The notes under the pieces: generated by a model
What the model was told of the DNA's origin: nothing
Database searches by the model: none
The model's input: only the letters and a program-made list of their open reading frames with translations
DNA from: Squalus acanthias
Taxonomy: Eukaryota
DNA: 64,000 bases
Direction of reading: 5' to 3'
Assembly (NCBI GenBank): GCA_030390025.1
Contig: CM059432.1
Coordinates: 30,754,001-30,818,000, forward strand
Shown: in pieces, positions 4,644 through 64,000 of the stretch
Position numbering within the stretch: position 1 is the first letter of the stretch
Layout: every line of letters begins with the position of its first letter
Made by a program: the position numbers and the translations under genes

Positions 4644-4967
4644 GTATATTTACTCAGATGCTGTCCTTTTTCTTACAGGCCAAGCTGGCGCATAATCAGA
4701 GACAGCAGCAATGGACAGGTGGAGGGCGGCCTCAGCTGCAACCCCTCAGCGATCTTGAGGAGCGCGTCCACAGGATTGTGGCAAGCCGGGTGATCGGTCC
4801 CGTCGCCACTGGAGACGCCGACCCCGTTCTGGACAGCAATGGTAAGGTCATCACCTTTTTGTCCTCTGTCCTTCCACTTGTCCCTCACAACACCAGCCTT
4901 TGACACTTTCAATCCAACTTGCTAACTCGCTGCACTTATTCCTCCCTTACTGCCACCCTGTCCTCAC

Positions 4968-14133: not shown

Positions 14134-14452
14134 TTGAGAGGTCGCACAACACCAGGTTATAGTCCAACAGTTTTATTTGAAATCACAAGCTTTCGGAGCT
14201 ATCGATTGCCCCTTCCTCAGGTGAAGTAAATAGATACAGAATCGCCAAAGCATATATAGATAGAGAACAAAGCATGTGTACCTTACAATTGCAGACAACT
14301 AAATTAAATCATCCTTACTATCTGCCGAGGTGTGATAAAGTTAATCAGGTCAGCCAGGAAGGTACCACATCAAAGACATAGCACGATACAACTGAGACAA
14401 TGAGGTGGAGTCGCAGGGGGTCTAACGTGTCAATAAATAGATACAGAATCCA
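14134..14452 (-). mobile_element. Penelope family B pLTR fragment inserted in CR1
   Basis: Reverse complement of ~23320-23613; CR1 sequence resumes on both sides. Confidence 0.85.
14183..14224 (-). ncRNA. Minimal hammerhead ribozyme (Penelope family B)
   Basis: Minus strand TCAC-CTGAGGA-a-GGGGC..GCTCC-GAAA-GCTT-GTGA. Confidence 0.75.
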
Positions 14453-16359
14453 TGGCTAATAAAGGCAAGCATTCTGTATGCCTTCTTAACCACCTTATCT
14501 ACCTGGCCTGCTACCTTCAGGGATCTGTGGACATGCACTCCAAGGTCCCTTTGTTCCTCTACACTACTCAGTGTCCTACCATTTAATTTGTATTCCCTTT
14601 CCTTGTTAGCCCTCCCCAAATGCATTACCTCACACTTCTCTGGATTGAATTCCATTTGCCACTGTTCTGCCCACCTGACCAATTTATTGATATCTTCCTG
14701 CAGTCTACAGCTTCCTTCTTCAGTATCAACCACACAGCCGACTTTAGTATCATCTGCAAACTTCTTAATCATACCCCCTATATTCAAGTCTAGATCATTG
14801 ATATATACCACAAAAAGCAAGGGACCTAGTACTGAGCCCTGCAGAATCCCATTGGAAGCAGCCTTCCAGTCACAAAAACATCCATCAACCATTACCCTCT
14901 GCTTCCTGCCTCCGAGCCAGTTTTGAATCCAAATTGACACTTTACCCTGGATCCCATAGGCTTTTAACTTCGTGACCAGTCTGCCATGTGGAACCTTATC
15001 AAAAGCCTTGCTAAAGTCCATATACACTACATCAAATGCACTACCCTCATCTACCCTCCTTGTTACCTCCTCAAAAAATTCAATCAAGTTTGTCAGACAC
15101 GACCTTCCCTTAACAAATCCGTGCTGACTATCCTTGATTAATTCGTGTCTTTCTAAATGAAGATTTATCCTGTCCTTCAGAATTCTTTCCAATAATTTTC
15201 CCACCACCAAGGTTAGGCTGACTGGCCTGCAATTACTCGGTCTATCCTTTTCTCCCTTTTTAAACAAGGGTACCACATTAGCAGTCCTCCAGTCCTCCGG
15301 CACCACACCTGAAGCCAGTGAGGATTGGAAAATGATGGTCAGGGCCTCTGCTATTTCCTCTTTTGCTTCGCCTAATAGCCTGGGATACATTTTATCCGGG
15401 CCTGGGGATTTATCCACTTTTAAAGCTGCTAAACCCTCCTTCCTCTCTCACTATGTTTATTTCATCTAATATTTCACACTCCTCCTCCCTGATAGCAATG
15501 TCTGCTTCGCCCCTCTCCTTTGTGAAAACAGATGCAAAGTATTCATTAAGATCCCTACCGACAACTCCCGCCTCCACTCACAGATTACCCTCATGATCTC
15601 TAATAGGCCCTACCCTTTCTTTAGTTATCCTCTTACTCTTAATATAATTATAAAACATCTTTGGGTTAACCTTGATTTTACTTGCCAAGAATTTTTCATG
15701 CTCTCTCTTTGCTTTCCTAATATCCTTTTTAATTGCACCCCTGCACTTTCTGTACTCCTCTAAATATTCTGGAGTATTTAGCCCTCGGTATCTGTCATAC
15801 GCCTCCCTTTTTTTCTTTATCCTACCCTGAATGTCCCTAGAAATCGAGGGGGCTCTAGATTTGTTAGTCATAGACATCACAGATATCACAGACTGGCTGT
15901 TGGATCCTCTGAGCCAACAGCCAGGTGATTTCTGCAAAGTTGAAAGGTTTGATGAGTCCTGAACACAAGGGCTCATCAAACTACACAGAATGTCTGTTTG
16001 ACAGCTTCACAGAGCTGTCAAATGATGACATTTCTTCTTTCAAAAGTTCTTGACAGATGGCACGTCATATGTTTACGTGCTCTGTCACTGACTTCCCAAT
16101 AATTGGTCTGCTGAGCCCGCTGGGCGGGCTTAACAAGGTCAATCAGGGGAAAATCCCGCTGATTGGCCAGAAGCTGATGGAGGTGGGATTAGAAGCCGGC
16201 AAGCAGCAGTCCCACCTCCAAAAGCTTCCCATTGAGAAAATCCAGCCCATAGCATTACTTATCCATGGGTCTGCAGCCAAACTTGGAGAATCATCACTGT
16301 TGGGCAACTGCACATGCAGAGTTGTTCTTGTGTTGCCCAGTCTATAACCAGATAGAAAA

Positions 16360-22528: not shown

Positions 22529-22931
22529 TTGATGTACTGGCAGGCCTGCCAGAAAGCCTGAGTGCAATGTCAAGGAGCATGGAAGAGCCCGGCACCAACC
22601 TTGCACAGGGCTTTGCGCAGAGCTTCCATGATTTCCAGCGTGCATGTGCACTTGTGGACCCAACATCTGATGGCTGAGGTCTCAGCTTCCATTGCCGCAC
22701 AAGCAGAAGTCACCCAACGTCAGAGTGTTGCAGTGGAAGCTCAGTCTTCTGTCATGCAAGCTCAGACTGCTGCCATTGTGGCTGCATTTACCAGTGTGGA
22801 ATGGGGCTTGCAGGGTGTCACAGCAGTCAAGCAAACTGCACTCCAACAGATTACTTGGAATGCTGAGGTGCTGCCCTGGGGGAGTGGCAGTGGCTCCGTG
22901 GAGCACAAACCTGCTGTCCTCTCTCAGGATG

Positions 22932-23613
22932 CAGACCATGCAGACACTGAGACAACGTATGAACGAGCACCGCGCAACAATCGCCAGGCAGGATTGTTAC
23001 CTCCCAGTCGGGGAACACTTCAGCAGTCAAGGACATTCAGCCTCGGATCTGCGGGTAAGCGTTCTCCAAGGCAACCTTAGAAACACACGACAACGCAAAA
23101 TCATCGAGCAGAAACTGATAGCCAAGTTCCGCACTCATGAAGACGGTCTCAATCGGGATCTTGGGTTTATGTCACGATACATGACGTGATCCGGACTCGA
23201 GTCGTCGTTAGCTTGTTCACAGATGTGATTCCCAGTAAAAAAGTAAAAATTTTCCCAGTAAAAAAGTAAAAAAATGTTAAAGCTTTTCGTTTTACATACA
23301 GACGGCAGCTTTTGACACGTTAGAACCCCTGCGACTACACCTCATTGTCTCAGTTGTATCTTGCTATGTCTTTGATGTGGTACCTTCCTGGCTGACTTAA
23401 TTAACTTTATCACACCTCAGCAGATAGTCAGGATGATTTAATTTATTGGTCTGCAATTGTAAAGTACACATGCTTTGTTTTCCATCTATATATGCTTTGG
23501 AGATTCTGTATCTAATTTACTTCACCTGAGGAAGGAGCAAATCGATAGCTCCGAAAGCTTGTGATTTCAAATAAAACTGTTGGACTATAACCTGGTGTTG
23601 TGCGACCTCTCAA
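22932..23613 (+). mobile_element. Penelope family B 3' fragment (GIY-YIG C-terminus plus pLTR)
   Basis: TMQTLRQRMNEHR...PVGEHF...EQKLIAKFRT...GLNRD; 13-bp TSD CTCTCTCAGGATG (22919-22931 / 23614-23626). Confidence 0.9.
23522..23564 (+). ncRNA. Minimal hammerhead ribozyme (Penelope family B)
   Basis: TCAC-CTGAGGA-a-GGAGC aaatcgata GCTCC-GAAA-GCTT-GTGA; all stems intact; palindrome AAGCTT; AATAAA immediately downstream. Confidence 0.8.
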
Positions 23614-24099
23614 CTCTCTCAGGATGACAGCATTCGTCCTCCCACCACTGCCACTCTGCCAGTGCCCTTGCTGTTGCCTGTCAGCCAGCCAGCCCAGACT
23701 GCTGCCACCCACGCCGAGCCACCAATGCTGACGTGCTGCAGTCCGCAGCCGGGCCTTCTAGGCCCAGAGCTGCTCAAAGTCGTCCGGCAGGGTCATCTGC
23801 AGTCTCCCCCACTAAGAGTCAACCTTCCACCAGCCCTGCTGCAGCCACTGGGGTAGCACTTCGTTGGAGCACTAGGACAGGCAAAGGCACACGGGAGACA
23901 GGCACTAAGGGAATGCACAAGGGTGATTAGTTGACTTTGTTATGTAATGTTGGATGGATTGATGTATAAAGTTGGATGAGAATGTTTCTTTTGTGGTGGC
24001 TTTTATTTCATCATTGTGGCCAAGAGGACGCTGTGATGGTCGATAACAGAGGGAAGGGAAGGTATGGGACTAATGTGGAAAGGGGAATTGGGGTTGCAT

Positions 24100-24194
24100 T
24101 CACTGGAACCACCGTCGTATGAGTCGATCACAGACAGCCCGGGCAGAAAGGGGCTGTCTGGGTTGCCTCCTCCCTTCCGCTTCCTCTTCTTCTG

Positions 24195-24225
<31 letters not shown>

Positions 24226-24805
24226 CTCCTCCTCCTCCTCCTCCTCCTCAGCTGGTTGCTGTATGCCTGGTGACAAGGGCTGTGCGCTCATGATGGCGAG
24301 GTTGTAGAGCATGCAGCAGACCACGATGAATCTTGAGTACTGCAGGGCTCCTCCAGAGCGGTCCAGGCAGCAGAAGCGTTGTTTAAGGATGCCAATGCTG
24401 CTCTATCAGATTCCGTGTGGCAGCATGGCTTTCATTGTACGCATGCTGCCCACGTGTGCATGGGATGCGCAGCAGAGTCATGAGCCAGGTGGTCGGCCGA
24501 TAGCCCTTGTCACCCAGTAGCCACCCTGTGATTTGTCATGGTGGCTCAAAGACTGAGGGAACAGTGGACTGTTGCAGAATAAAAGCATTATGACTGTTGC
24601 CAGGATACTGGGCATTCACCATTATGATGTGCTGAGCATGGTCGCACACCAGCTGCACATTCAGCGAGTGGTAACCTTTGCGGTTGCAGTACATCTCAGC
24701 ATTTAGAGACGGTGCCCGCAAAGCCACGTGCATGCAGTCGATGGCGCTCTGCAGCATGGGCAAGCCCGCTATCCTGGCAGAGCCACTTGCACGTTCCGCC
24801 TGCAT
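24100..24805 (-). pseudogene. Degenerate Harbinger transposase of copy C
   Basis: SAIDCMHVALRAP, NRKGYHSLNVQLVCD, VCCMLYNLA and acidic tail; broken reading frame. Confidence 0.85.
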
Positions 24806-29053: not shown

Positions 29054-32000
29054 ATGAAGGGGGGCATTCTCCTACTCGCTCTGATAGGAATGCGCGCTGG
29101 GAGGCGAGGTGACGTGGAGGACTCCCACATTTTTGGGTGCTCAGGAGAGAGAGCACCGGTGGTGACTGCGGATGGCAGCAAGCGAGGCGTGAAGGAGCTC
29201 GCTACCTATTCCCACGTGGGAAGATGGCCAGGGTGGCTGGGATCTAACTCCACCCGATACTCCAGTCAGACCGGGCTCACCTACGGGGAGGCCTCCCTCC
29301 CCTGTCCCAGCATACAGGTTGTAGCCACTCGGGTCGGGGTCACTGAGGGGAAACACGTGTGCCTGACTTGCAGAGGAAAGATTCCCCTGGGAAGGTGGTG
29401 GTGGCTCAGGAAGCTGAGCAGAGACATGGGGGACCATACAGCTGACTGGGAGCGACTGGGGAATGACACCCATCGGACCATTACAGGGGACCATAGGGCG
29501 GTGAGCGTGTGCTGGGACAAGTGGTGGAAATCGGAACAGGGGATTTATGTCTGCATGTGGGGGTTGCGGAAGGCCTGCCCCACGGGCATATCCATTATCT
29601 TTTCCGCAGCATGGCTGCATAAGGGGAAGGGGGTGGAATGGGATTCCCACCTACACACTTGCATAGTCCTGCCCTCTCCAGCCCCAGTCAAGGCCACTGA
29701 ACTCGTGGCACATGCCCGTAAGTCCCTGCCCACGACCCAGACAGCAAGGACACACACAGAGACATGCCCTACCACCACCAAGGGACCAGGGAATAAGAAC
29801 ATAAGAACATAAGAAATAGGAGCAGGAGTAGGCCAATCGGCCCTTCGAGCCTGCTCCGCCATTCAATAAGATCATGGCTGATCTGATCCTCACCTCAAAT
29901 CTAAAGAACACAAGAAGTAGGAGCAGGACCCGGCCACTCAGCCCCTGGGCCCGCTACGCCACCCACAGGGCCTCGACCGATCCGAACTCAGCCTCATGTC
30001 CAATTTCCTGCCCGCTCCCCGTAACCCCTAATTCCCTTTACTTCTAGGAAACTGTCTATTTCTGTTTTAAATTTATTTAATGATGTAGCTTCCACAGCTT
30101 CCTGGGGCAGCAAATTCCAAAGACCTACTACCCTCTGAGTGAAGAAGTTTCTCCTCATCTCAGTTTTGAAAGAGCAGCCCCTTATTCTAAGATTATGCCC
30201 CCTAGTTCTAGTTTCACTCATCCTTGGGAACATCCTTACCGCATCCACCCGATCAAGCCCCTTCACAATCTTATATGTTTCAATAAGATCACCTCTCATT
30301 CTTCTGAACTCCAATGAGTAGAGTCCCAATCTACTCAACCTCTCCTCGTATGTCCACCCCCTCATCCCGGGGATTAACCGAGTGAACCTTCTTTGTACTG
30401 CCTCGAGAGCAAGTATGTCTTTTCTTAAGTATGGACACCAAAACTGTATGCAGTATTCCACATGCGGTCTCACCAATACCTTATATAACTGCAGCAATAC
30501 CTCCCTGTTTTTATAATCTATCCCCCTAGCAATAAAAGCCAACATTCCGTTGGCCTTCTTGATCACCTGCTGCACCTGCATACTAACTTTTTGATTTTCT
30601 TGCACTAGGACCCCCAGATCCCTTTGTACTGCAGTACTTTCCAGTTTCTCGCCATTAAGATAATAACTTGCTCTCTGATTTTTCCTGCCAAAGTGCATAA
30701 CCTCACATTTTCCAATATTGTATTGCATCTGCCAAATCTCTGCCCACTCACCCAGCTTGTCTATATCCCCTTGTAGGTTTTTTATGTCCTCCTCACTTTC
30801 TACTTTCCCTCCCATCTTTGTATCATCTGCAAACTTTGATATGTTACACTCGGTCCCCTCCTCCAAATCGTTAATATAGATTGTAAAGAGTTGGGGACCC
30901 AGCACCGACCCCTGCGGAACACCACTGGCTACTGGTTGCCAGTCCGAGAATGAACCATTTATCCCAACTCTCTGCTTCCTGTTAGATAACCAATCCTCCA
31001 CCCATGCCAGAATATTCCCCCCAATCCAGTGATTTTTTATCTTGAGCAATAATCTTTTATGTGGCACCTTGTCGAATGCCTTCTGGAAGTCTAAATACAC
31101 TACGTCCATTGGTTCCCCTTTATCCACCCTGTACGTTATGTCCTCAAAGAACTCAAGCAAATTTGTCAGACATGATTTCCCCTTCATAAAGCCATGGTAC
31201 TAGTGCCAACCGAAAAGGTGCTATACCAGGGGGTACACTACGTGGTAGCTTCCGTGATCCTAAACCTCACGGAGGTAAACTTACCTGAGTGGTGCCCCAA
31301 AGAGACGGAACAGCTATACCAGGCCCTGTTCAGAGAAATGTTCAGGAAGTTCTACGAGTTCGATTTCACAAACGTAGACAAAGCAGAACTGTGCACTGCA
31401 CACACTGAGTATTTTAACAATACGGGGAGACAAAGGAGGGGAGCCTGGAATTATATTTTTACAGCATAAAATACAGGGTCCTCTGTCATCAACAGTCTGG
31501 ATGACATAGAATTGCAGACACAAATAAACGGTTTAAAAACACAATTGCGCAAAATCTTAATGGATGAAAATACAGTAGTGGGCTCAGAGTTACACGAGGA
31601 CCAAGCTATGACAGTCCATTTAAAAGAAATCATTGCTGAGCTGGAAAGGCACGCAAAGACAGTAAATGCACTCATACGGGAGGACAGGAATGCATCAGAC
31701 CAGGCTGCACAGAACGAGGTGTGCATACTGTACGGGGCATGGTTGCTAGGCGAGGGCCAGAGTAACCTGAAGGATTTAAAGCAAGGTTTAGTCCCCTCCT
31801 GGATCAGCAACAAGCACCTCGCAGCCCTCCACCCATTTGAGAATTCACTAAGCCCGTGTCAGCTCCGTCTAGCCTCTGAAGCCTACCCTGTACCAGTAGA
31901 TTGTGGGTGTTCCAATCACAGTATCATGGGGATAGTGGTGAGGATGCCGGTCACGGGTGGGACCGCCCGACCCGCACTGGTATACAGGGTGGAGAACATT

Positions 32001-33349: not shown

Positions 33350-35370
33350 AGCCAGATTTCTAGCCCGCTGTGCCTTTCCAACATTTCCGGTTTTGATTTG
33401 AAGTTGCATGAGCTGTTCTGTATGCACTCTGTATTCTGCATCTCATTATCCAATTGTCTCGTAATTAACTGCAGCTGAAACTACAAAATGGCGCCAACTG
33501 GAGCTCGTTATACTGTTTGGTTTCCTTGCAATGTTTCCTTGGAAGCTGCCAAAACAGAACAAAAAAAATTACAGAGTATTTTAGAAATCTTTTGACCGAT
33601 TATTTAATAAATTTTTGCATTGCAAGTTTTTTTCGGAAAAATTGGGTGTAATGTGACCCCTGGCACAACACAGGATAGCTACCTCATGTTGTACCTATTA
33701 CAGAAATTGCTTGGATACTGCCTGAATCAATCACTACGCTCGTATTCCACTGTATTCACTGCAATTGACAACATCAAGAGGAATCAGATGATCATAGCAA
33801 GAGCAGCACTAGCAATGGACAAGTTATTGTGGCCAACAGGACCAAACTGTGGAAATAAGTAGATTGCGTAAAGACAGAAAATTGGTCTCTGCCCCATTTT
33901 TAGAGTGTGCATTAACACGCTCATGCTAAACCCCAATCTGCTTTATTCAATAAAGTATTATACAATAGCATACAAGTAGCATAGAATGAAGTGAATAGAA
34001 TTAGCACAGGGAGGCTGAGAAAGGGATTTGGGACTGGCATAGACTTGTCACTTGCAATGTTGAGAAAACGTAGAGCAACGTAACCAGAACAGTGGAGTAT
34101 CAGGTGCTGAACTTCCACAGGGTTTCTCCCAAACGACTGCCCTAGCTTTGGCGGAGGTCTGCAGAAACATCGGTGAAAAGGCTTAAACGCCCTTTACGCC
34201 ATTGCTCCCGGGTTTCTGCCAATCTTCTGCTGAAGTTATGGTGGATGAGCGGGAGAACCCTAATGTAAATTCAGCCCCTAAGTCTGCAATGGCTATGCTG
34301 TCAGTTTATAATGTGCTGGGCAGACCTCATTTGGAGAGGTGTGTACAGTTCTGATCGGGAGCATGTAAAGAGGAGAGCTGTAAGGAAAGATTAGAGAGGC
34401 TTAAACTCAACAGACCAGCAAGAAGTTGGTTATGAGGGGACCTTACTGAGGGATATGAAAATATTAAATTGGGCAGGTCAGGTGAACACAATAGAAGCAT
34501 GAGAAAAACAGACATCGAGCCAAAGAGGAATAGATTAGGGAGTGGGATGGTGTTGGTGCCGAGGATACAGGGTTTGTGCCAAAGGCCACTATGGCTGCAA
34601 TTTTACTTACCTCGGCGGGACGACATAAATGGCGGGTCCCGACCCCGCCGCTGTCTCCATCCCAGACTCTGAAATGACTTTCCCCTGATTGGGCTTGTTA
34701 AGCCCGCCCAGCGCATTTCCCAGCCAATTAGAGGAAGTGGGTCTGGTGACGTCTTTTGATGACGCGTCATCAGCCGGTTTCCTTAAAGGGACCATGGCCA
34801 ACTTTATTCTGGCATTTGTGCTGTCAGTGTTCTACAGCATTGAGGTGCTGCAAACACTGACAATCACTGCACAGAGGTGCAGGGTTGCACCCAGGTTCTC
34901 CCATGACTCCCTCCATATGCTTATGGAGGGAGCCACAGCACGCAGGAAGGTCCTCTTCCCTTTCCATGGGCGGAAGAGACCTCCCCAGGACACCAACACA
35001 GCCTGGTTGCACATTGCAGAGGAGATCACAAGCAGGGATGTGGTCAGGAGGACCTGGGTGCAGTGCCGCAAATGTTTCAATGATCTCAGTAGATCACGAA
35101 ACATAAGTACAAAGCCACACTCAACCTCATCCTGCTGTGCCTCTCATCACATCCCCATCACGCTGCCTTCCCTACCCTACTCCTGCACATCCTTACTCAC
35201 ACCAACTTTTCGTTCACCCCCACCCACCCATCTCTCTCTATCTACATTATCACATCCCCATCTCACTAGCCACCGCTCACACTCACCCTCATCCTCGTGC
35301 AATCATACCAACTAACAACACATGAGGGTAGGCACTTGGGTGTTTTATGCAATGTTCATGTAAAGTTTTT

Positions 35371-48336: not shown

Positions 48337-49970
48337 AATATGGTTGCAAACACTCACACGTGACATGGTTGTACATTAAAAGAATCTGGTAACACTAATT
48401 TGTGTACATAGTGTTGTTGGTAAAGTTTGCTTACAGTTCTTATAATTGGTAGATATTTGAACTTCAGGGGAAATGTAATGCATTGTAGCTGAAGGCATAT
48501 TTGGTGAGAGAATGGGGAAAAGGGCTGGACAGGGCAGTGTCCACATTTGCAAGTTAAGAGGTGGCCAATATGGGAGCTTCTGAAATGGCTTTCATTGCCA
48601 GCATTGGGTATTGCTCTACACCCACTTTGGACTCCTCTCTTTAGCAAAGTTGTGCAGCTACATCAACAATTTTTGAAACTTTTGCTGAACTGTATTGGAA
48701 AAAGCCAAAAATCCTAACCAAGGAACCTCAAGTGCTAATTCAATATTCAGTCTGCTTGATGCTCACTATGGTGATTGGCGGTGCATCATTGTACCTGTGC
48801 TCTGCTGGTGTCCTAGAATACTAAACAAGTGTCAGAATATAGCTTTAATGCCAGGAGCCAACCTGCCACTTGCCTTTGTGGATTGGCTAATGGGAGGGAG
48901 ACAGTTGACCGCCTTAAATTAATAGCATCGTGACAGCTGTCTGCGAAATGAGCATTGACTTGTATAATCTGGTGCTGATGGTTGAAAACAAGCTATACAC
49001 TTAGAGTGTGGAATCCTTTCCCCTTTATGTAAGTAGTGTTATTGTGTAATGGAACCATAGGGTCACATTGGTACAATCTATAACCACTGGACTTTCAGGA
49101 ATCTTATCAATCTTTAAAATTTCCAGTGTCAGCTAAATTTATTCCCGACTCCAATTGGGGGATCATCACTGGAGGGGTGGGTGTTGAGAAATGGTCGGCT
49201 GCTGCAAGATTTATGGAGCCAGACATCAGAAGGAGAATTTTATTTCTCTCTGACAAGCAGGATTACCAGTTGTGAAATGTTGGAGAATTTGGACACAGGA
49301 CAAAGAGCCCCCAAATTTTTAGAGGCATCAATAGATCTGCTGCTGGCCCAGATTTAGATGAGCAGAAAGGTCCTGTTTGCAAAATAGGACAGAAGTCTCA
49401 CATTGAGAATTGCCCAGGCATAACTAAAAGCAAAGGACCTGGCAATAAATGGCAGCTCTACAACTCCCTGCATGGCTTCTCTGGGTGCTGCAAGAAGTTG
49501 AATGACCATAAAAAGTCATTTAGAGGAATCAGCCGCACGTTCCAAGAATGCACTTTACTTACAACCACCTTCCCTTTATTGTGTTGAAGTGCTTCAAGAG
49601 CTTACCATTAATGTTCATGAGGTTCGGTGGAGTTCTTTACACCAACAGTCTTCACCTGCAAGTGTTCCCTTATTCACAGCCTTACGTTCATAGACACCAC
49701 GAAAAGCCTCAAATGGAATGTAATTGCTTGTTTCAAGTACCTATCATCAGCCCCATGACTGTCCACCTGCTACAGTCTGGGTTTCATTGTATCTTATTCT
49801 GACTCTTGGCATTCTTAAAGGAGAAGCCAACCCACAACAGCAGAAATAAATTAATTAGAAGTGTTGGTCCACCCAATCTCTGGTCTCTCACCTTTTATGA
49901 GGAGGAAGATTTGGAGCTCCTAAGGGGCAAATAGAAGTGTGAATCAGAGACAGGAAAGTTGAAGAGAAGG

Positions 49971-52900
49971 TGTCGTAAGAATGAGCCTTACGCGTGGTAA
50001 ACTTAATGTAAGCTTTAATCAACTTAAAACGGTGCTGCATACAAAAGAGGTCTTACCCTATGCCTCTTCCAGAGCTAACTGATCAGTCCAGTATTTATCC
50101 TGGACTGATTACAGGAAGTGATGTCATACAGGAAGCTGAAAAGTGTTACCACATTCTCCCCCCCCAAAAGATTAGGAGGCCGGAATGCTCCCTCCATTTC
50201 GTAGCCGTTGGATGAGGGAGAGCCGCACCCGTTTGGGTTCTCGTAGCGGTAGAGGGCCCCTAGCCCGTTTACCCGCTGCGGGCCATGGACCAGAGTCCGA
50301 GTGCTCCAGCCCGCTCTGTGAGGGGTCAGAACGATCCTGACTGTGTACTGGTACCCGAATGGGTGTCGGGCAGGGCTGTGGCAGATCCGTTTCTGAGCGT
50401 ACGGTACAGGGTTGATCGTGGCTGCGCGTGCGAGCCCCGACGGGCTCATAGTCAGTCTGCCCCAGGTCGGCACGCTGGAGTGAGGTACCAGCCGGCGTCA
50501 GATCCCGATCATGATGAGAGGCACCTGGCAAGCCCAGAGATGTGCCTGGTACAATATCATCCCCTGGTGTCCCTCTATGTTTCGGCGGGCAGGGAGCCAG
50601 ATCCCGCAATGACACGGTAGATTCCCGACCGTCAGGATACCGAATATAGGCGTAGGTAGGGTTGACGTCAGTGAGCTCAACCTCATCTACCAGGGGGTCA
50701 TTCTTAGACGCCCGGACATATCTTCGGAGTAGCACTGGTCCCGGTGCAGTCAGCCACGACGGGAGAGATGTCCCATAGGATGAGCGACGCTGAAATCGGA
50801 AGAACCGTTCATGAGGCGTCGTATTTGTGGCGGTCGAAAGGAGGGACCGTGTGGAGTGTAATGCGTCTGGAAGTACTGCTTCCCAATGCTGGTTGGGTAG
50901 GCCCCGAGATCTCAAAGCCAGACGTACCGCATTCCAGATGATAGCGTTAAAACGCTCGACTTGCCCATTCCCAACCGGATGATAAGGCGTCGTTTTGCTG
51001 GCAGCAATACCCCGTTCCGAGAGATAGGCCTTGAGTTCTCCCGACATAAAAGAAGGGCCCCGATCTGAATGAACATAGGATGCCATGCCACAGAAAGCAA
51101 ATACCTGTTCAAGGCAGCTGATAACCGTGGTTGTCAGCATATTGGGGCAGGGAAAGGCAAACGGAAAACGAGAATACTCATCAACCATTGTTAATAGATA
51201 AGTGTTGCGAGTCGAAGAGGGCAACGGCCCCTTAAAATCGATGCTAAGCCTTTGCATTGGCTGGGTCGCATGTATGAGTATACCACCCGAGGGGCGGAAA
51301 AACCGAGGTTTCAATTCCGCACAGACTCTGCAGTCCGAGCACATCTTCTTTACATCCCCGGTAGAGAATGGGAGATTTCGGGACCGCACGAAGTGCAGCA
51401 TGCGAGTAACGCCTGGATGACACAACCCATCATGGATGTCTACGAGCGTAGAGGGTGCCATGGCGGAGCAGAATGCTCGTGTGAGGGTATCCGGAGCCAC
51501 ATTCTCCTTGCCAGGTCGATAGTGGATGGTGTAACCAAAAGAGGCCAATTCCAGCCGCCAAAGCTGGATTTTATTATTTTTAATTTTGGTCCGTTTTCGA
51601 TTATCGAGCATGAAGGCGACCGATCGCTGGTCCGTGATTAAGGTAAAGTGCTGGCGAGCCAGGAGATGACTCCACTTCCGTACTGCCTCTATGATGGCTG
51701 TAGCTTCTTTCTCGACTGGAGGATAATGTAGCTCAGCCCCTTGAAAAGTCCTGGACAAAAATGCCACCGGACGACCTTCCTGATTCAGAGTGGCTGAGAT
51801 TGCCACCTCCGAGGCATCACACTCAACCACGAAAGGAAGACTCTCATCGATGGAGTGAAGAGCCGCTTTCTCCAACTGCTTTTTCAGGAGGTTAAAGGCT
51901 GCAACAGCCGTTGTGTCTAGTGGGAATGTGCTGGCCTTCAGTAGAGGTTGGATTCGGTCCGAGAAGTTAGGAATCCATTTCGCATAGTATGCAAACAGGC
52001 CGAGGGCCCGGCGCAAGGAGGCCGGATTCTTAGGTGGCGGGAGTTCTTGGAGTGGGCGAAGCCTTTCAGGGTCAGGTTTAATGATGCCATTGCCCACACA
52101 ATAGCCAAGGATGTTGATAGTTGGTTGTGACTCAATGGATTTAGCCGCATTCAATGTCAAATTACGGTGCTGGAGTGCATCCCAAAATCGTTGGAGATTG
52201 GCGTCATGTTCCTGCTGATTGCGACCTGCGACAGTAATATTGTCCAGATAAGGAAACGTATCCTTCAAGTCTTCCTGTTTCACCAGGTCATCCATTGCTC
52301 GCTGGAAGACAGCCACTCCATTAGTGACCCCAAAGGGGAGGCGACGAAATTGATACAGCCGCCCATTGGCTTCAAAGGCTGTATACTGCTTGTCTGAGAC
52401 CTTCAAGGGTACCTGATGATAGGCGCTTTTCAGATCATAAGTCGAGAACACCGTATACTCAGCCAATTTATTAACCATATCATCGATGCGCGGCAATGGG
52501 TATGCGTCCAAGTCCGTATACTGATTGATGGTCTGTGAATAGTCAATGCACAGCCGTTTCTTGTGAGGTTGTAGAGGGTTCTTAACAATAACGACCTGGG
52601 CGCGCCATGGCGACGAACAAGGCTCGATGATATCCTCTGCTAAAAGCCGAGAAATCTCAGCCGCAATAAAAGACTGGTCTTCCTGACTGAAACGGCGTGA
52701 CTTTGTTATAATCGGTTTGCATCGAGGAGGGATACTGGCAAACAGTGAGGGTTCATCCAGTGAAGCTGCTGACAAGGCACAGAACGGTAATCGAGGTCGT
52801 ATATTAGAAATAGTGAGTTCAGGTTTGGATCCGCCGAACTCAATGGTAAGCTTCTTATGCTGCTTTTGAAAATCCAGCCCTAAGATAAGATCACTACATA

Positions 52901-54390
52901 AGTCCTTGAGCACCGAAAGCCGGGTGGAGGGATACCTGTGACCTTTAAGCATTATTTCAACTACACAGAAGCCAGAAATTCTGGTATTAAGTGATGACTG
53001 AGCCATCGCAACTGCCTGGTCCGATGGAAAAACATGTAGCTTTAACTGTGCAACAGTCTGTTCCCTAATGAAACTATCAGTGCTACCTGAGTCAATTAAG
53101 GCATCTAAAGTATGTCCATTAATTGATGCTTTTGTAGCTGCATGGAATAGATTCTGAGGACAAGCAGCTGTAATTGGTGTCGTTGCACAAAGAGTGGCTG
53201 AAATTCTAGGTGTGTTTCTTCGAGAAAAAACCCGAGAGGAAGCACGATAGTTTTTAGTTGGAACATCCTGATAGGCCCTTACTGGGGCAGTTCGGTAGGA
53301 CTTAGCTTGATAAGCCCTCGTAGAGGCTCTTGATAGGCAAACCTTTACAAAATGACCCTTTTTGTTGCAATGACTGCAAAACGCATTGCGAGCAGGGCAG
53401 AATCTCCGAGGGTGAAACTCATCACCACAAAAAAAGCATTTCTTAGATTGCCAAGAGGCTGCCACAGTGGGGTCATCATCCTCTTCATCAGTGAAGTCAT
53501 CAGATCGATCGTCAGGGATAAAGTCCTCCCTAATAGAGTTCACCTGTGGCCTCTTAAATTGCCTGACTGTAGTTAAGGCAGCAGACCGAGGTCTGGGCAC
53601 TGTAAAAAGGTCTGCATTTCTTTTTGCCAGATCTAGAGAGCAAGCCAGGTCATAAGCTCTCTGCAGCTCAAGTGTCTTACTTTCCAGTAGACGCTGGCGT
53701 ATAAATGGGGAGGCAAGCCCGCAGATGAACGCATCACGGATCATTTCTTCGCGGTATAGCTCAGCTGAGGCTGCCCGAAAGTTACAGTCCATACTAAGTC
53801 TGCGAAGCTCTTGGAGGAATTTATCAATGGATTCCTCCGGCCCTTGTTGGGCTGTAGCTAGTAGATGTCTAGCATAGACCTCATTCGGTGTCTTAGTATA
53901 TAGTCTCTTAAGCGTCTGAATTGCCTCCTCATAACTGTCCCAGTCTTCCACATACTGGAATACATTCGGGGTGACACAGTTGATGAGTATCCGCAACTTT
54001 GAGTTATCATCAGCTTTGCAATACTCAAGAAAATTCTCAAACGTGCGATACCAGTGTTTCCACACCTTACCGGCTGCTGGGGTGTTTGGGTCCAAGTCAA
54101 GACGCGATGGTTTAAGGATGTTTTCCATGATGGGTGATTCCCTGGATCCTTAGCTCCGAGTTCGTCCAAAAAGTTTGAGTGCGAAGTTTTTCAAAAGTTG
54201 ATTAAATTGTCGTAAGAATGAGCCTTACGCGTGGTAAACTTAATGTAAGCTTTAATCAACTTAAAACGGTGCTGCATACAAAAGAGGTCTTACCCTATGC
54301 CTCTTCCAGAGCTAACTGATCAGTCCAGTATTTATCCTGGACTGATTACAGGAAGTGATGTCATACAGGAAGCTGAAAAGTGTTACCACA
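49971..54390 (-). mobile_element. Intact Gypsy/Ty3 LTR retrotransposon
   Basis: Identical 183-bp LTRs (49971-50153, 54208-54390), GAAGG TSD (49966-49970 / 54391-54395), PPT GGGGGGGGAGAA, single ORF. Confidence 0.97.
50172..54128 (-). CDS. Gag-Pol polyprotein (1318 aa): Gag, protease, RT, RNase H, integrase
   Basis: Two knuckles (CFFCGDEFHPRRFC, CSHCNKKGHFVKVC), LIDSGS, RLCIDY, LPFG, YLDN, CDAS, H..H..C..C, IDFKGP, SDRG, NGQVER. Confidence 0.96.
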   Translation of the reverse strand: MENILKPSRLDLDPNTPAAGKVWKHWYRTFENFLEYCKADDNSKLRILINCVTPNVFQYVEDWDSYEEAIQTLKRLYTKTPNEVYARHLLATAQQGPEESIDKFLQELRRLSMDCNFRAASAELYREEMIRDAFICGLASPFIRQRLLESKTLELQRAYDLACSLDLAKRNADLFTVPRPRSAALTTVRQFKRPQVNSIREDFIPDDRSDDFTDEEDDDPTVAASWQSKKCFFCGDEFHPRRFCPARNAFCSHCNKKGHFVKVCLSRASTRAYQAKSYRTAPVRAYQDVPTKNYRASSRVFSRRNTPRISATLCATTPITAACPQNLFHAATKASINGHTLDALIDSGSTDSFIREQTVAQLKLHVFPSDQAVAMAQSSLNTRISGFCVVEIMLKGHRYPSTRLSVLKDLCSDLILGLDFQKQHKKLTIEFGGSKPELTISNIRPRLPFCALSAASLDEPSLFASIPPRCKPIITKSRRFSQEDQSFIAAEISRLLAEDIIEPCSSPWRAQVVIVKNPLQPHKKRLCIDYSQTINQYTDLDAYPLPRIDDMVNKLAEYTVFSTYDLKSAYHQVPLKVSDKQYTAFEANGRLYQFRRLPFGVTNGVAVFQRAMDDLVKQEDLKDTFPYLDNITVAGRNQQEHDANLQRFWDALQHRNLTLNAAKSIESQPTINILGYCVGNGIIKPDPERLRPLQELPPPKNPASLRRALGLFAYYAKWIPNFSDRIQPLLKASTFPLDTTAVAAFNLLKKQLEKAALHSIDESLPFVVECDASEVAISATLNQEGRPVAFLSRTFQGAELHYPPVEKEATAIIEAVRKWSHLLARQHFTLITDQRSVAFMLDNRKRTKIKNNKIQLWRLELASFGYTIHYRPGKENVAPDTLTRAFCSAMAPSTLVDIHDGLCHPGVTRMLHFVRSRNLPFSTGDVKKMCSDCRVCAELKPRFFRPSGGILIHATQPMQRLSIDFKGPLPSSTRNTYLLTMVDEYSRFPFAFPCPNMLTTTVISCLEQVFAFCGMASYVHSDRGPSFMSGELKAYLSERGIAASKTTPYHPVGNGQVERFNAIIWNAVRLALRSRGLPNQHWEAVLPDALHSTRSLLSTATNTTPHERFFRFQRRSSYGTSLPSWLTAPGPVLLRRYVRASKNDPLVDEVELTDVNPTYAYIRYPDGRESTVSLRDLAPCPPKHRGTPGDDIVPGTSLGLPGASHHDRDLTPAGTSLQRADLGQTDYEPVGARTRSHDQPCTVRSETDLPQPCPTPIRVPVHSQDRSDPSQSGLEHSDSGPWPAAGKRARGPLPLREPKRVRLSLIQRLRNGGSIPAS

Positions 54391-54629
54391 GAAGGTATCA
54401 GCTGGGGGTTCATCATTATGTTTTGTTTCTCTTTCTTCTCATGCTATTGAACTTCACATAACCTGTTCGCAAGCTACATATGAAACACTCCTTCTACTGA
54501 AAGACACATGTTAACTCTACTTCTCTGCAACTCATTCTAATCTTTCTTCTTCTTCCCAAGATGTCACACCGTAAGAAGAAGAGGAGGAGAATGAAGATCT
54601 GCCAGCATTTCATTACATGTTCTATCACA

Positions 54630-56774: not shown

Positions 56775-57219
56775 GGCCAGAATTTTGGCGGCTGTCAGAG
56801 GGCGGGTTCGGAGGTGGGTCCGCTGTCAAATTCTAAAAGATTGACAGTGTCATAGAGTCATAGGGGTAGAAATTAGGTCGCGCCCCATTTGGGGCGCAAA
56901 TATCGTCCGCGCGCAAATATTAGCGCCTGGCGCTAATTATCGGCACTGACAGGAAACTTCACTTTTACCGCCCCGGGAGGTGAGTGGAGCGCTAAATTAG
57001 GCGCTGCACACCTCTCTTAAGGCGCAAAGGCCTAGGAGTGAGGCGCTACCTCAGCGCACGAGCGCAGCGCAGCTGCTGCCAGTTAGCGAGGGAACACAGA
57101 CACACTGGCGCTGGACACTTCTTAAAGCGGGGGGGGCCACTTGCTCCCCAGCCACACCCTGCTCATTGCAGCCTTGAATCTCAGCCTGGAGAGACCTGTA
57201 ATCCATTTTGCTGCCAAGC

Positions 57220-59074
57220 ATGGAGAGGGTGAGAGAACGCGCTCATCGCTTCACCGAGCGGGCCTTGGATGCTCTGGTTGACGCAGTGGAGCGCAGACGA
57301 TGCATGCTGTTCCCGGAGAGTGGCAGGAGGCCTTTGCCACGCGAGTTCAGAAGAGTGTGGAGGGAGGTGGCTCAGAGCGTCTCCTCCAGGAGCATGGTGC
57401 CCAGGACCCATGTTCAGTGCCGCAAAAAGTTCAACGACCTCACTCGGGTCGTCAGGGTGAGTGGCTTTTTCTCAATACCTCTCCATCCCTCCAGCTCAAC
57501 CTCACTCTATGGCCAGAGGGTCTTAAAACCCCAATGCACAACACTCATGCAACACCTATGGCCCTTTCATCAAACACACACACACATTCCACACTTTGCA
57601 TACAGTAAGGGCTATTCACCTATGGGAGGCACATCAGGCAAGACCATGGCTGCATATTTACTCAGATGCTGTCCTTTTTCTTGCAGGCTAAGCTGGCTCA
57701 TAATCGGAGACAGCAGCAACGGACGGGTGGAGGGCGGCTTCAGCTGCAACCCCTCAGCGATCTGGAGGAGCGCGTCCACAGGATTGTGGCAAGCCGGGTG
57801 ATCGGTCCCGTCGCCACTGGGGACGCCAACCCCGTTGTGGACAGCAATGGTAAGGTCATCACCTTTTTGTCCTCTGTCCTTCCACTTGTCCCTCACAATA
57901 CCAGCCTTTGACACTTTCAATCCAACTTGCTAACTCGCTGCACTTATTCCTCCCTTACTGCCACCCTGTCCTCACGCTAAAGCCACTCTTGTACCTCCCT
58001 GCTTTCAGATGGTGATTCACCAGCTGAGGAGACGGGCCCTGAAGCTGCCACTGGGAGTGAAGCTGCAGCTGAGGGGGAAGAGGAAGCCGGAGCATCAGTG
58101 CCACCCTCTCCCGAGGAAGCCATGGCCACACTGGGAACACGCCTTCCCCGGAGGGGAGCAGGGGGGAAGGGGCTGATGATGGTGATGTTCCAGGACCCAG
58201 CGGGCTGCAGCAACGCCATTGGGGGGGGAGGGAAGAACGGGGGAGCAGGGGGGAAGGGGCTGATGATGGTGAAGTTCCAGGACCCAGCGGGCTGCAGCCA
58301 CGCCATGGTGGGGGGAGGGAAGAACGGGAGCCTTCTCCCCAGAGGGAGAGTATGCCAGACACTCCTAATGCAATGGACGCAGAGGAGGAGCGGCTGATTG
58401 CAGAAATGAACAGCCAGGCGGTGGGCATGCACACTGAGCTCATGGGTGCAGTGGGAAGGGTGCCCGAATACATTGAGGCACTGGCAAGGAGTGTGGAGCA
58501 CTTCGCTGTAGCACAGGCGGATGCCACACTAAAGCTTACTGCTGCAATTCAGTCACTGGCTGCCAGGAACCCATCTGAGACTGCTCTCATGCAGACTCAG
58601 ATTGAGGCCACGCGAGCACTGACTGCTGCCATCCTCGATGGTTCGTGCACATGTCCCCGGGGCTGTCACCGCGCCGCAGCAGGCCAGCAATCTGTTCTCC
58701 GGCAAATTGCTCCGGATGCTGAAGTGCTGCCCCGTGGGAGTGCCAGTGTGTCGGGCGAGCAGGGAGTTGCTGTCCTCTCTCACGATGACAGCATTCCTGC
58801 TGCCAACACTGTCACTTCTCCACTGCACTTGCCACCGCCTGTAGGACAGACTGCTGCCGCCCATGCAGAGTTGGTGCAGTCTGCAGCCGGGCCCTCCAGG
58901 CCCAGAAGTGGTCGAGGCCGTCCTTCAGGGGCATCTGCAGTGTCAGGGTCTGACAAGCAGCAGCCTTCCACCAGCCTTGCTGCAGCCACTGAGGTCCCAT
59001 TACGGAGGAGCAGTAGGGTTAGAAGGGGGGAAGTGCGCAAGGGAAGGAGATCACCCTCGAAGGGCAAAAAGTAG
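57220..59074 (+). pseudogene. Harbinger Myb/SANT-like gene, exons 57220-57456, 57687-57849, 58009-59074; 1-nt deletion ~58121 and 87-bp duplication 58153-58326
   Basis: Colinear with copy 1, same splice sites; frame differs from copy 1 after EEA. Confidence 0.85.
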
Positions 59075-59368
59075 GAGGTGTGCCAAAATGCTGGTCATTT
59101 TTTTATTAAAGGCCGAGGTTCATGGCCCAACTTTTGTTTAGTGTTTTGGACATTATCTCCAGGTTGTGAGAACCAGTTATGTTATTGACTGTTTTTTTGT
59201 GTTTATTTCTATGAGTTTGTCATGAGGAATTGACACACACAGAGTTTGTACAATAAATAAGTTTCTGTATTCAAAATATACATGGCTGGTGGTTGGAATT
59301 ATTGGTGCCTTGGCCGGCTTAGGGGTTGCGTGCTGGGTTGATTCGTGTTTGTAGCACTGGCAGGGGCC

Positions 59369-60529
59369 CTAGAAGCGGCTTGCTATTAGTCGTTGACGGA
59401 CGGCCCTTGCAGTTTGACCATTGTGGGCCGCCCTCCTGCCTTGGTGCTGCTGCTGATCATCGTCCTCGGCCTGTTCCTCCTCTTCCTCCTCCTCCTCTTG
59501 TGGTGCTGCAAGGCCTGGTGGCATTGGCTGCGTCCTGAGGATTGCCATGTTGTGCAACATGCAGCACACCACTACGAATTTGGAAACTTGCTCAGGCGAG
59601 TACTGCAGGGCTCCTCCGGAATGGTCCAGACAGCGGAATCATTGTTTGAGCACGCCGATTGTGCGCTCAATAATGTTCCTCGTTGCTTGTTGGCTTTCCT
59701 GGTACCGCAGCTCAGCAGGGGTGTTTGGCGCACGGAGCGGTGTCATCAGCCAGGTGCTCAATGCGTACCCCTTGTCCCCCAGAAGCCAACCAACTGGCTG
59801 ATGCGGTGCCTCGAAAATTTCTGCCACAGTACTCTGGCGCAGGATGAAAGCATCGTGGCAGCTGCCCGGATAGTGGGCATTGACAGCGAGAATCACCTGT
59901 CTGTGGTCACAGACCAACTGCACATTCAAGGAATGGAACCCCTTTCTGTTCCGGAACTCCTCTGCATTCTCTCGCGGAGCACGCAAAGCCACATGCGTGC
60001 AGTCAATGGCGCCCTGCACCATGGGGAAGCCCGCTACCCTCGCAAAGCCCATAGCACGGTCATGCTGCTTGTCTGGGGTCATAGGGAAGGAGATGAAGTC
60101 TCGTCTCCTTGTGAAGAGGGCATTGGTGACCTGCCGGATGCAGCGATGCACCGCAAACTGGGAGATATTGGCGAGGTCCCCAACAGCAGCTTGGAATGAG
60201 CCAGTGGCGTAGAAGTTCAAAGCCACTGTGACCTTCACTGCCACCGACAGAGACGTCCTGGACCTCAGCTGAGGCTGCAGATCTGGCTGCAGCAGGTGGC
60301 AGAGCTCAGTGACCACCTCCTTGCTGAATCGCAGCCTTCGCAAACACAGCTCCTCGGACATGTGGATGTAGGAGAGCTGTTCACGATATACCCTGGGAGG
60401 GTAAGCTCTCCTGTACATGCGCCTGATGGCCCTCCTCCGTCTGGCCATCATTGCCACTCTCTGTCTGCATCTCACTCTCCTCCGATTGAGCTGGAGCAGG
60501 ACGACGCCCCCAATCATTGCAGCCCCCAT
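59369..60529 (-). pseudogene. Harbinger DDE transposase with in-frame TGA at 59639-59641
   Basis: Same motifs and length (1161 nt) as copy 1; the stop replaces R in KQRFRC. Confidence 0.93.
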
Positions 60530-61045
60530 ATTCTCTTTGCCAGAAAAGTAATGAGGTACAGCAACGAAAGTAGCAGCAAAGTTAGGATGAACTAGGCAAA
60601 ACTACCTCACAAAGCGTTGAGTCAATGTAGAAGTCTCTCTCTCTCTCTCTCCGAATCTCTCTCTCTCTCTCAGAACGAGTGGTGCATAAATGTCGACCAC
60701 AGAAAAAGACAGGAAGAGGCCCCCTTTAAATAGCGCCCCCCCCCAGCCCCACACCGATTGATAACGTTCCAGTCTTCCGGTCGTTGGAAGCGCCAGGCGG
60801 TAAGGCAGGGGGCGCCACTCAATTTCCGCTCCGGGGCGCCCCAAGGGCGTTGCACCACGGAATGACGTCACAATCTGCGCGCGCAGGTGGTCGCAGCGGT
60901 AAGTTTTAGCGCCGCCGCACAATCTCAAGTTAAGTTCTCGAGCGGCGCAAACAGCGCTGCGCCCGGGCGTTAGCGCCTTAACGCCCCATTAGCGCCCATT
61001 TAAGGCGCTAACGGGAGGCGCAACCAACTGAATTTTTACCCCATA

Positions 61046-64000
61046 GAGTTATACAGCTCAGAAAGAGGCCCTTCGGCCCATCGTGTCGGCGCCAGCCATC
61101 AAGCCCTATCTATTCTAATCCCATTTTCCAGCACTTGGTCCATAGCCTTGTATGCTATGGCGTTTCAAGTGCTCATCTAAATGCTTCTTGAATGTTGTGA
61201 GGGTTCCTGCCTCTACCACCCTTTCAGGCAGTGAGTTCCAGATTCCAACCCTCTGGGTGAAAAAGTTTTTCCTCAAATCCCCTCTAAACCTCCTGCCCCT
61301 TACCTTGAAACTATGCCCTCTGGTTATTGACCCCTCTACTAAGGGGAAAAGTTCCTTTCTATCTACCCTATCTATGCCCTCATAATTTTGTACACCTCAA
61401 TCAGGTCCCCCCTCAGCCTTCTCTGCTCTAAGGAAAACAACCCCAGCCTGTCCAGTCTCTCTTCATAGCTGAAGCGCTCCAGCCCAGGTAACATCCTGGT
61501 GAATCTCCTCTGCACCCTCTCCAATGCGACCAGAACTGCACACAGTATTCCAGCTGTGGCCTAACTAGCGTTTTGTACAGCTTCATCATAACCTCCCAGC
61601 TCTTATATTCTATGCCTCGGCTAATGAAGGCAAGTATCCCATATGCCTTTTTAACCACCTTATCCACCTGTCCTGCTGCCTTCAGGGATCTATGTACATG
61701 CACACCAAGGTCCCTCTGATCCTCTGTCCTTCCTAGGGTCCTACCATTCATTGTGTATTCCCTTGCCTTGTTAGTCCTCCCAAAATGCATCACCTCACAC
61801 TTTTTGGGGTTAAATTCCACTTGCCACTGTTCTGCCCATCTGACCAACCCGTCTATATCGTCCTGTAGCCTGAGGCTTCCCTCCTCGCTATTTACCACTC
61901 CACCAATTTTCGTGTCATCTGCGAACTTACTGATCATTCCTCCTACATTCATATTTAAATCATTAATGTACACTACAAACAGCAAAGGACCCAGCACCGA
62001 TCCCTGCGGTACACCACTGGACACAGGCTTCCAGTCACAAAAACAACCTTCGACCATTACCCTCTGCCTTCTGCCACTAAGCCAATTTTGGATCCAATGT
62101 GCCAAATTGCCCTGGATCCCATGTGCTCTTACCTTCTTGACCAGTCTCCCATGCGGGACTTTTTCAAAAGCCTTACTGAAGTCCATGTAGACTACATCAA
62201 CTGCACTACCCTCATCCACACACCTAGTCACCCCCTCTCAAAATTCAATCAAATTGGTTAGACATGATCTCCCCCTGACAAAGCCATGCTGACTATCTTG
62301 ATTAGTCCTTGCCTCTCCAAGTGGAGACTAATTCTGTCCCTCAGAATTTTTTCCAATAATTTCCCTACCACTGATGTTAGGCTCACTAGCCTGTAATTCC
62401 CTGGTTTATCCCTACTACCCTTCTTGAATAATGGTACTACGTTAGCTGTCCTCCAGTCCTCTGGCACCTCCCCTGTGGCCAGGGAGATTCTGAAAATTTG
62501 TGTCAAAGCCCCTGCAATCTCCTCCTTTGCCTCACACAGCAGCCTGGGATACATCTTTTCTGGGCCTGGGAATTTATCAACTTTTAAGCCCACTAAAACT
62601 GCTAGTACCTCCTCCCTCTCAATACTAATTTGTTCAAGTATATCACAATCCCCCTGCCTGATTTCTATGCCTACATCGTCCTTCTCCATAGTGAACACAG
62701 ATGCAAAATATTCATTTAAAACCTCATCCACATCTTCCGGCTCTACACACAGATTGCCACTTTGGTCCCTAATGGGCCCTACTCTTTCCCTGTTTATCCT
62801 TTTGCCCTTAATATACTTATAAAACACCTTGGGATTTTCCTTTATTTTGCCCGCCAGTGTTTTTTCATGCCCCCTCTTCGCTCTCCTAACTTCTTTTTTA
62901 AGTACCCCCCTGCACTTTCTACACTCCTCTAGGGCTTCCACTGTTTTTAGTCCTTTGTATCTGCCAAAAGCCTCCCTTTTTTTCCTAATCCATTCTTGTA
63001 TATCCCTTGACATTCAGGGTTCCCTGGGCTTGTTGGTCCCACCCTTGACCTTTACGGGAACATGTTGGCATTGTACTCTCTCTATTTCCTTTCTGAAAGA
63101 CTCCCACTGCTCTGATGTGGATTTCCCAGTCCACTTTGGCCAGATCCTGCCTTATCATATTAAAATCGGCCTTCCCCCAATTTAGAACCTTTTCCATGAC
63201 TACCTTAAATCTCACCGAATTATGGTCACTGTCACCAAAATGCTCTCCTACTAACACTTCTACCACTTGCCCGGCTACATTCCCTAGAATTAGGTTCAGT
63301 ATTGCCCCCTCTCTTGTAGGACTTTCTACATGCTGGCCCAAAAAGCTTTCCTGGATGCACTTTAAGAATTCCGCACCCTCTAAGCCTTTCACACTCTGAC
63401 TATCCCAGTTAATATTGGGGAAGTTGAAATCCCCTATTATTACCCTATTATTTCTACACTTCTCTGAGATTTGCCTGCCTATCTGTTCCTCTATCTCCCC
63501 CTGACTGTTTGGGGGCCAATAGTACACTCCCAGCAAAGTGCTTGCCCCCTTTTTGTTTTTAAGTTCTACCCATATGGCCTCATTAGAGGAACCTGCTAAG
63601 ATATATTCCCTCCTTACAGCAGTAATTGACTCCTTAATTACACCCCCCTCTGTCTCGCCTGAAGATTCTATACCCCGGAATATTGAGCTGCCAGTCCTGC
63701 CCCTCCCTCAATCATGTCTCTGTGATAGCTACAATATCATACTCCCATGTGATCATCAACACCTTCAATTCATCTGCCTTACTCGCAAGACTCCTTGCAT
63801 TAAAATAAATGCCATCCAGCCTTGCCATACTCCCTTGTGCCATTACATATTTGCTCTGCCTTCCAGGCTGACTTGTTTTTTCCTCTATATTTGGCTGTGC
63901 ATCACCCCCTAATATAGCTCCACTCCGTATCCCATCCCCCTGCCAAGTTAGTTTAAACTCCCCCCGACAGTACTAGCAAACCTCCCCGCAAGGATGTTGG
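61046..64000 (-). mobile_element. CR1 LINE ORF2 (endonuclease plus RT), frameshifted, runs off the window; tail begins at 56851
   Basis: IIGDFNFP, SDHN (APE endonuclease), DWRTANV, PQGSVLGP, KFADD. Confidence 0.93.

Follow-up and report, generated by a model that had tools for sequence, protein, structure and literature searches.

The window analysed here, a 64,000-nucleotide stretch of Squalus acanthias DNA, harbors a complete Ty3/Gypsy LTR retrotransposon of 4,420 nt on the minus strand (positions 54390-49971), with direct TG...CA LTRs, a target-site duplication and a polypurine tract. Read in the sense direction, the element is preceded by the target-site duplication CCTTC (54391-54395) and opens with a 5' LTR of 183 nt (54208-54390), which has the same sequence as the 3' LTR. 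Within the LTR, a perfect 10-bp inverted repeat (54346-54319), found also in the 3' copy, encloses the 8-nt loop GATAAATA (54336-54329, LTR 55-62) and is followed by an initiator-like TCAGTT at LTR 72-77. Further downstream lies a 12-nt stretch, AAGTTGATTAAA (54262-54251, LTR 129-140), which we call the partner and predict to be a self-primer; within it are an initiator-like A-G (54261-54260) and an ATTAAA (54256-54251, LTR 135-140), the sole AATAAA/ATTAAA hexamer of the LTR. A short hairpin, GCTTA/TAAGT (54238-54250), comes directly after the partner, and folding of the window element predicts a 7-bp hairpin close to the LTR end (54211-54229). The primer-binding site (PBS), TTTAATCAACTT (54206-54195), starts one base (54207) past the LTR and precedes a single open gag-pol frame of 1318 aa, read from an ATG at 54128 (50172-54128). 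The polypurine tract (50154-50165) adjoins the 3' LTR (49971-50153), which carries a copy of the partner (50025-50014) with no PBS behind it, and the second CCTTC duplication (49966-49970) closes the element, all of these features lying on the minus strand. The identical LTRs and the unbroken frame point to a recent insertion.

The gag-pol translation contains a CCHC-type knuckle followed by protease, reverse transcriptase (RT), RNase H and integrase, the Pfam order protease-RT-RNase H-integrase in this polyprotein (P0001) being that of Gypsy elements, and the best PDB match to its RT is the Ty3 enzyme (E 5.6e-50). The Pfam scan of P0001 detected neither PF00385 nor PF24626, its C-terminal 242 aa gave no chromodomain match at E values up to 10, and a Tf2-type SH3 match was likewise absent from the element. 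What lies at this locus is an intact chromodomain-less Ty3/Gypsy retrotransposon. The active site of its RT reads YLDN and not YxDD (residues 634-637 of P0001), though the element looks recently active; among 175 motif-matched proteins of the relatives (P0002-P0196), YxDN appeared in 136 and YxDD in 30, the remaining 9 matches being spurious, and a literature search for YLDN together with reverse transcriptase gave no match.

The remainder of the window is transposon-rich eukaryotic DNA, and the window as a whole has no tRNA gene. Two copies of a Harbinger-like DNA transposon, 89-100% similar to each other, occupy about 3800-9640 and 56860-61040 and include a Myb/SANT frame and a DDE_Tnp_4 transposase. 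Weaker Harbinger-like copies lie near 22800-24300, and 34689-35315 contains a Myb frame. A 596-aa frame on the plus strand (1561-3351) with weak RT and GIY-YIG matches is Penelope-like, and LINE-type fragments with RT and endonuclease matches were found at 14422-15740, 29994-31199 and 61428-63707 (−).

The initial annotation had proposed that this element lacks a tRNA-type PBS and that its PBS position is instead complementary to its own LTR across the poly(A) signal, and the sequence bears this out. After the 5' LTR comes an A followed by TTTAATCAACTT, not TGG, and these 12 nt pair without a mismatch with the ATTAAA-containing partner, the two arms being separated by 44 nt as read on the minus strand. 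The proposed orientation of the self-primer also agrees with the arm geometry, which puts the 3' end of the partner facing U5. The site has the features by which the PBS of self-primed elements is recognized, a complement of at least 10 nt to the own LTR, a start 0-5 nt past it and no TGG. A complement of at least 12 nt occurred in none of 20,000 dinucleotide shuffles of the LTR and one of 11 nt in six, while 30 of 18,222 sampled positions of the window have a complement of at least 12 nt within the preceding 183 nt. The 81-nt region spanning both arms folds into the expected stem with two inner hairpins (−16.9 kcal/mol, z −3.2, none of 200 shuffles as low), and the signal weakens in longer stretches (z −2.8 at 121 nt, only −1.4 at 150 nt); a further GTTTT/AAAAC stem is predicted past a 4-nt bulge.

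An LTR subfamily that differs by 10 substitutions and a single deletion (54193, 54244, 54261-54313) is seen in contigs of two read runs; its change at 54244 sits in the loop of the side hairpin and retains the stem. Contigs of these runs show one base missing at 54261, at the outer edge of the partner, and one missing at 54193, in the T run behind the PBS, and are too short to phase the two; together, both deletions would leave an 11-bp duplex core.

Relatives of the element were collected at the protein and DNA levels. Protein searches with the gag-protease part listed 112 matches, and with the pol part the best 120 out of 1,270. Among the named hosts of the listed matches were corals or anemones, a mussel, crustaceans, nematodes, a tunicate, a catshark and an electric ray. 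Neither a chromodomain nor a Tf2-type SH3 domain appeared among the precomputed Pfam domains of these 112 and 120 listed matches. A gag pattern retrieved 120 metagenome loci, in a scan that covered about a third of the collection, and four genome-bin loci. Among the resulting 125 sequences (124 loci and the window), 75 had both enough upstream DNA and a gag match, and they fell into 36 groups at 78% DNA identity; most of the relatives derive from a few assemblies and do not represent a random sample. Loci L081-L120, with only 300 nt of flank, were not judged, L123 was dropped for want of a gag match, and L073, with a 10-nt match at another place, was not taken as representative. Three loci filed under bacterial genome bins (L121, L122 and L124) are animal-type retrotransposons of the clade, likely host contamination. 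The 'LTR pairs' returned by self-BLAST in L122 and in several viral contigs turned out to be terminal overlaps of circular assemblies and not LTR ends, and the viral contigs scanned for clade relatives held none.

With an anchor chosen independently of pairing, the PBS position of at least one member paired perfectly with the own LTR over 10-16 nt (mean 13.6) in 26 of the 36 groups, window included. Cross-family pairing averaged 5.0 nt over 650 combinations, and 10 nt was attained in 14 of them. When the longest inverted repeat before gag was sought blind to pairing, the same duplex right after the CA was repeatedly returned, with 6-10 nt in controls, and at loci where self-comparison fixed both LTR ends, no more than 1 nt separates the terminal CA, or its spacer base, from the start of the pairing. 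The PBSs of these 26 families comprise 22 distinct 11-mers, and none of the 26 representatives starts with TGG. The 10 groups lacking a run of at least 10 at the anchor include none with an unbroken frame, and two of them (L041 and L062) yielded a duplex of 10-12 nt in the blind search; conversely, 11 of the 13 loci with an unbroken frame have such a run, the other two (L012 and L058) having the duplex with one mismatch. Counting from the inner end of the duplex, pairing exceeds the cross-family expectation at positions 11-16 and falls to background at 17, positions 1-10 being perfect partly through the choice of representatives. Whichever RNA start was assumed, folding predicted the duplex at a probability above 0.5 in 25-26 of the 26 families. 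Judged from these comparisons, the self-pairing of the primer site is real and clade-wide.

Distances around the duplex vary among families. In L007, L022, L049 and L067 the duplex adjoins the gag start, with the ATG 15-18 nt from the PBS start, and in the window element the gap from PBS to ATG is 78 nt; in L007, L012/L067, L022 and L049 the fold could also affect translation. In L066 and L030 a mere 20 and 23 nt, respectively, lie between the partner and the end of the LTR, which would give a first cDNA of about 21-24 nt.

Loss of the complementarity in related elements had been named by the initial annotation as what would speak against its proposal; instead, the complementarity proved to be conserved, with matched changes in both arms. 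On a weakly resolved gag tree, parsimony requires no fewer than 65 double changes, matched between the two arms, over positions 1-13. Even between L022 and L055, which are 99.6% identical in gag (3 of 680 bases differ), one change in the partner, seen in both LTRs of L022, is accompanied by the matching change in the PBS. G-U pairs, allowed in the search, occupy 6 of 405 cells at positions 1-13 of the 32 distinct duplexes, against 29 of 113 in the neighbouring hairpin after the partner. The matched change and the scarcity of G-U pairs are both expected if the PBS is copied anew from a retained primer in each cycle. In Tf1, about half of the cDNA keeps a copy of the PBS at its 3' end (PMC11042837), and a title cited in the reference list of PMC6317226 has it that the self-primer is not removed; from these facts we infer that the PBS of the window element may be re-copied likewise. 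Much the same covariation and G-U pattern would arise if perfect pairing of the duplex were under strict selection.

The word GATAAATA had been read as a possible TATA box, which would make the partner internal to R, a reading that the comparison does not support, no TATA being conserved upstream: the window LTR has none, TATAWA occurs within 160 nt upstream in one of the 26 families, and ATAAAT in two, at different places. The strongest non-terminal conservation is instead an A/T-G at positions 11-10, its G present in 24 of 26 families, preceded by a pyrimidine run that is mostly T at positions 13-16. This arrangement resembles an initiator; according to PMC3601003, initiators are frequent in LTRs and can function where a TATA box is missing. 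Given that no TATA is conserved upstream, the partner is more likely the 5' end of the RNA than internal to R. Positions 13-16, which are paired in 23, 17, 15 and 11 of the 26 families, respectively, lie upstream of the initiator-like A at position 11, and one fixed start at that A therefore does not explain the whole duplex; RNA starts would need to vary or to lie a few bases further upstream. Four of 24 listed read runs were examined: X19 gave 0 records and X21, which is raw DNA, six partial reads. For X1 and X17, which are RNA by guess only, the contigs spanned the LTR from end to end and joined it to several different flanks, the pattern expected of DNA, so that they are not evidence of transcription, and these contigs contained neither a start site nor a poly(A) end.

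The proposal that the fold masks the poly(A) signal in the 5' LTR was weakly supported. A canonical hexamer overlaps the partner in 16 of the 26 families, three of which have a second one downstream, and it is missing there in the other 10, whose partners have A/T-rich ends and of which three have a hexamer downstream of the duplex. If the cap lay within about ten bases of the hexamer, its closeness would already be expected to suppress the poly(A) signal. Masking appears, on this comparison, to be at most a secondary effect, which may help some families and is not the conserved function. The hairpin after the partner closes within the LTR and reaches at least 4 bp in 20 of the 26 families. 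It opens with the four bases that follow the partner, which read GCCT in 13 of the 26 families and differ little from this in most of the rest, and the summed hairpin length of 113 compares with a shuffle mean of 75.5, none of 2,000 shuffles reaching 113.

A complement conserved through matched changes, with a hairpin right after the partner, leads to the reading that the window element probably starts reverse transcription, in the manner of Tf1, from roughly the first dozen bases of its own RNA rather than from a tRNA; that it primes itself in some form we consider very probable. By analogy with Tf1, transcription would start at the partner or a few bases before it (about 54261-54266, where a pyrimidine run is followed by A-G), and the 5' end of the RNA would fold onto the PBS across the 44-nt loop. 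The RNase H of the element would then, as in Tf1, cut the duplex at its junction with the hairpin, AAA/GC (54251/54250), at the 5' foot of the latter, leaving a 3'-OH that faces U5. From this end, RT could copy about 44 nt, which would then be transferred onto the short R of the 3' end, and plus-strand synthesis would copy the retained primer and rewrite the PBS in each cycle, keeping the arms perfectly matched. Covering of the 5' ATTAAA would be a side benefit in those families with the hexamer inside the primer.

Self-priming might also proceed with a partner internal to the RNA, whereby transcription would start far upstream, a cut after the partner would release a long 5' fragment with its final 12 nt acting as primer, and the 5' poly(A) signal would be hidden by the fold. 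We regard this as unlikely. Pairing does extend 2-5 nt beyond the initiator-like A in most families, the extra GTTTT/AAAAC stem is predicted past the 4-nt bulge in the window, the hexamer overlaps the partner in 16 of 26 families and TCAGTT at LTR 72-77 is a further initiator-like word, but GATAAATA sits in a hairpin loop less than 20 nt from that TCAGTT, no TATA stands at a conserved distance, and the hexamer is missing from the partner in 10 of 26 families. In addition, the pairing ends sharply at 16-17, where a long primer copied back into the PBS would be expected to let the complementarity creep further. Quite improbable, in turn, is a duplex that serves as a structural or regulatory stem, blocking polyadenylation or organizing the leader, with something else as primer, such as a host RNA fragment displacing the stem. 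Such a stem should tolerate G-U pairs as the adjacent hairpin does (29 of 113, against 6 of 405 in the duplex), its 3' arm always begins one base past the CA of the LTR, that is, at the PBS position, and a host primer would need to match 22 different 11-mers; the matched changes between near-identical copies also weigh against it, despite the A/T-rich, hexamer-like run in which the partner ends in nearly all families and the restriction of the PBS arm to the 5' LTR, an asymmetry that poly(A) control needs.

Pairing in cis and in trans is indistinguishable from sequence, and LTR ends join several flanks in the contigs, pointing to many LTR copies, so the same short piece might be cut from another RNA copy, be it the second genome of the particle or a transcript of a solo or 3' LTR; yet the cis fold, predicted at about 0.99 across a loop of 21-72 nt, should form first, which makes priming in trans very improbable. 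A chance complement hardly needs to be entertained: for all the A/T-richness of the arms, and with 30 of 18,222 window positions reaching 12 nt, none of the 20,000 shuffles did so, and the covariation across 26 groups refutes it.

Priming by the RNA 5' end, as preferred here, invites comparison with the systems in which self-priming has been described, namely Tf1/sushi, or predicted, namely Tcn1 and the TAR copia lineage (PMC6317226, PMC4600332, PMC10085805, PMC5341516). Tf1 uses a self-primer from its 5' end (PMC10085805). Like the window element, Tf1 and Tf2 of Schizosaccharomyces pombe, Tj1, Tosmo1-3, Tcry1 and the Tf1/sushi group have the Ty3/Gypsy domain order, no tRNA site and, directly behind the 5' LTR, a PBS complementary to part of the own LTR (PMC10085805, PMC4600332, PMC6317226). 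The window clade differs from Tf1/sushi in having no chromodomain or Tf2-type SH3 match, a loop of only 21-72 nt, a poly(A)-like hexamer often inside the primer, an RT motif that is mostly YxDN and, as named hosts of its relatives, animals. The 'pretzel' reported for Tf1 consists of three duplexes, whose side duplexes pair PBS-adjacent with LTR sequence (PMC10085805), whereas pseudoknot-free folding of the window clade predicts a local hairpin after the partner and, in the window element, a second one near the LTR end. Self-priming is likewise predicted, from an LTR complement of at least 10 nt located 0-5 nt past the LTR, for the TAR lineage (Houba, Osr-1) and the Tcn1 clade (PMC6317226). TAR elements are plant Ty1/copia elements, a different superfamily, so the signature occurs outside Tf1/sushi, whereas Tcn1 forms a chromovirus clade related to Tf1/sushi. 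Two further LTR elements also lack a TGG-type PBS: Skipper of Dictyostelium has a polypyrimidine stretch with no complement in its LTR (PMC5006619), and the fungal copia element GalEa, as described in PMC6934838, a hairpin inside the internal region.

A tree of RT-RNase H was built from 14 proteins of the clade together with Gypsy-like contigs, of which 12 out of 17 were used (five were omitted as short or redundant), with chromovirus-group outgroups labelled by a Pfam chromodomain in four cases and by likeness in four, Tf1 and sushi themselves being absent; PF00385 matched four of the eight outgroup proteins scanned. The clade forms one side of a long branch (100/100) and the eight chromovirus-group rows another (96/92), while a union of the clade with five of these rows was not rejected by an AU test (p 0.057), long branches weakening both tree and test. 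The absence of a chromodomain match is the reason for not filing the clade under Tf1/sushi, and an origin of its self-priming separate from theirs appears likely. Among other loci, L130 (1043-8050) encodes a Gypsy polyprotein that has a chromodomain and, between RNase H and integrase, a match to DNA adenine methyltransferase (Dam). L125 (110-565) belongs to the chromovirus group, has true LTRs and shows 9 nt of complementarity between the PBS position and its own LTR. As to named families, Cigr-1 of Ciona intestinalis is presumably about 4.2 kb long with one ORF of about 1,200 codons, a size that fits the relatives. Its clade is reported in molluscs and annelids (PMC6238403, PMC8556966), tunicate and mussel proteins are among the listed matches of the window element, and the main text of these two papers makes no mention of a PBS; from size and host range, the affiliation is a lead only. 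The literature covered, which leaves Repbase, GyDB and most subscription journals outside its scope, gave no description of self-priming in the window clade. Some Repbase entries may already refer to self-priming among Gypsy families of animals, in which case the trait would have been noticed before.

Experimental proof of self-priming comes from the fission-yeast element Tf1, and the trait has been treated as a mark of the Tf1/sushi chromoviruses. The mechanism as such is known, and what appears to be new, from the comparison of these sequences, is a variant of it in an unexpected lineage. We put forward only tentatively the wider proposal that a pan-animal Gypsy clade, ranging from cnidarians to cartilaginous fish, might have evolved self-priming independently of Tf1/sushi and in the most compact form seen, in which a dozen bases would be initiator, poly(A) signal and primer at once, the making of the primer would remove the 5' poly(A) signal, and a YxDN RT would copy a first cDNA of 21-72 nt. 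If true, a widespread chromodomain-less clade of animal Gypsy elements would add a likely separate origin of self-priming, its members would escape control by tRNAs and tRNA fragments, and the tRNA-based PBS filters used in LTR annotation would miss them. The very short leader would, moreover, bring the cut-and-prime step within reach of assays that use an RNA of only about 100 nt.
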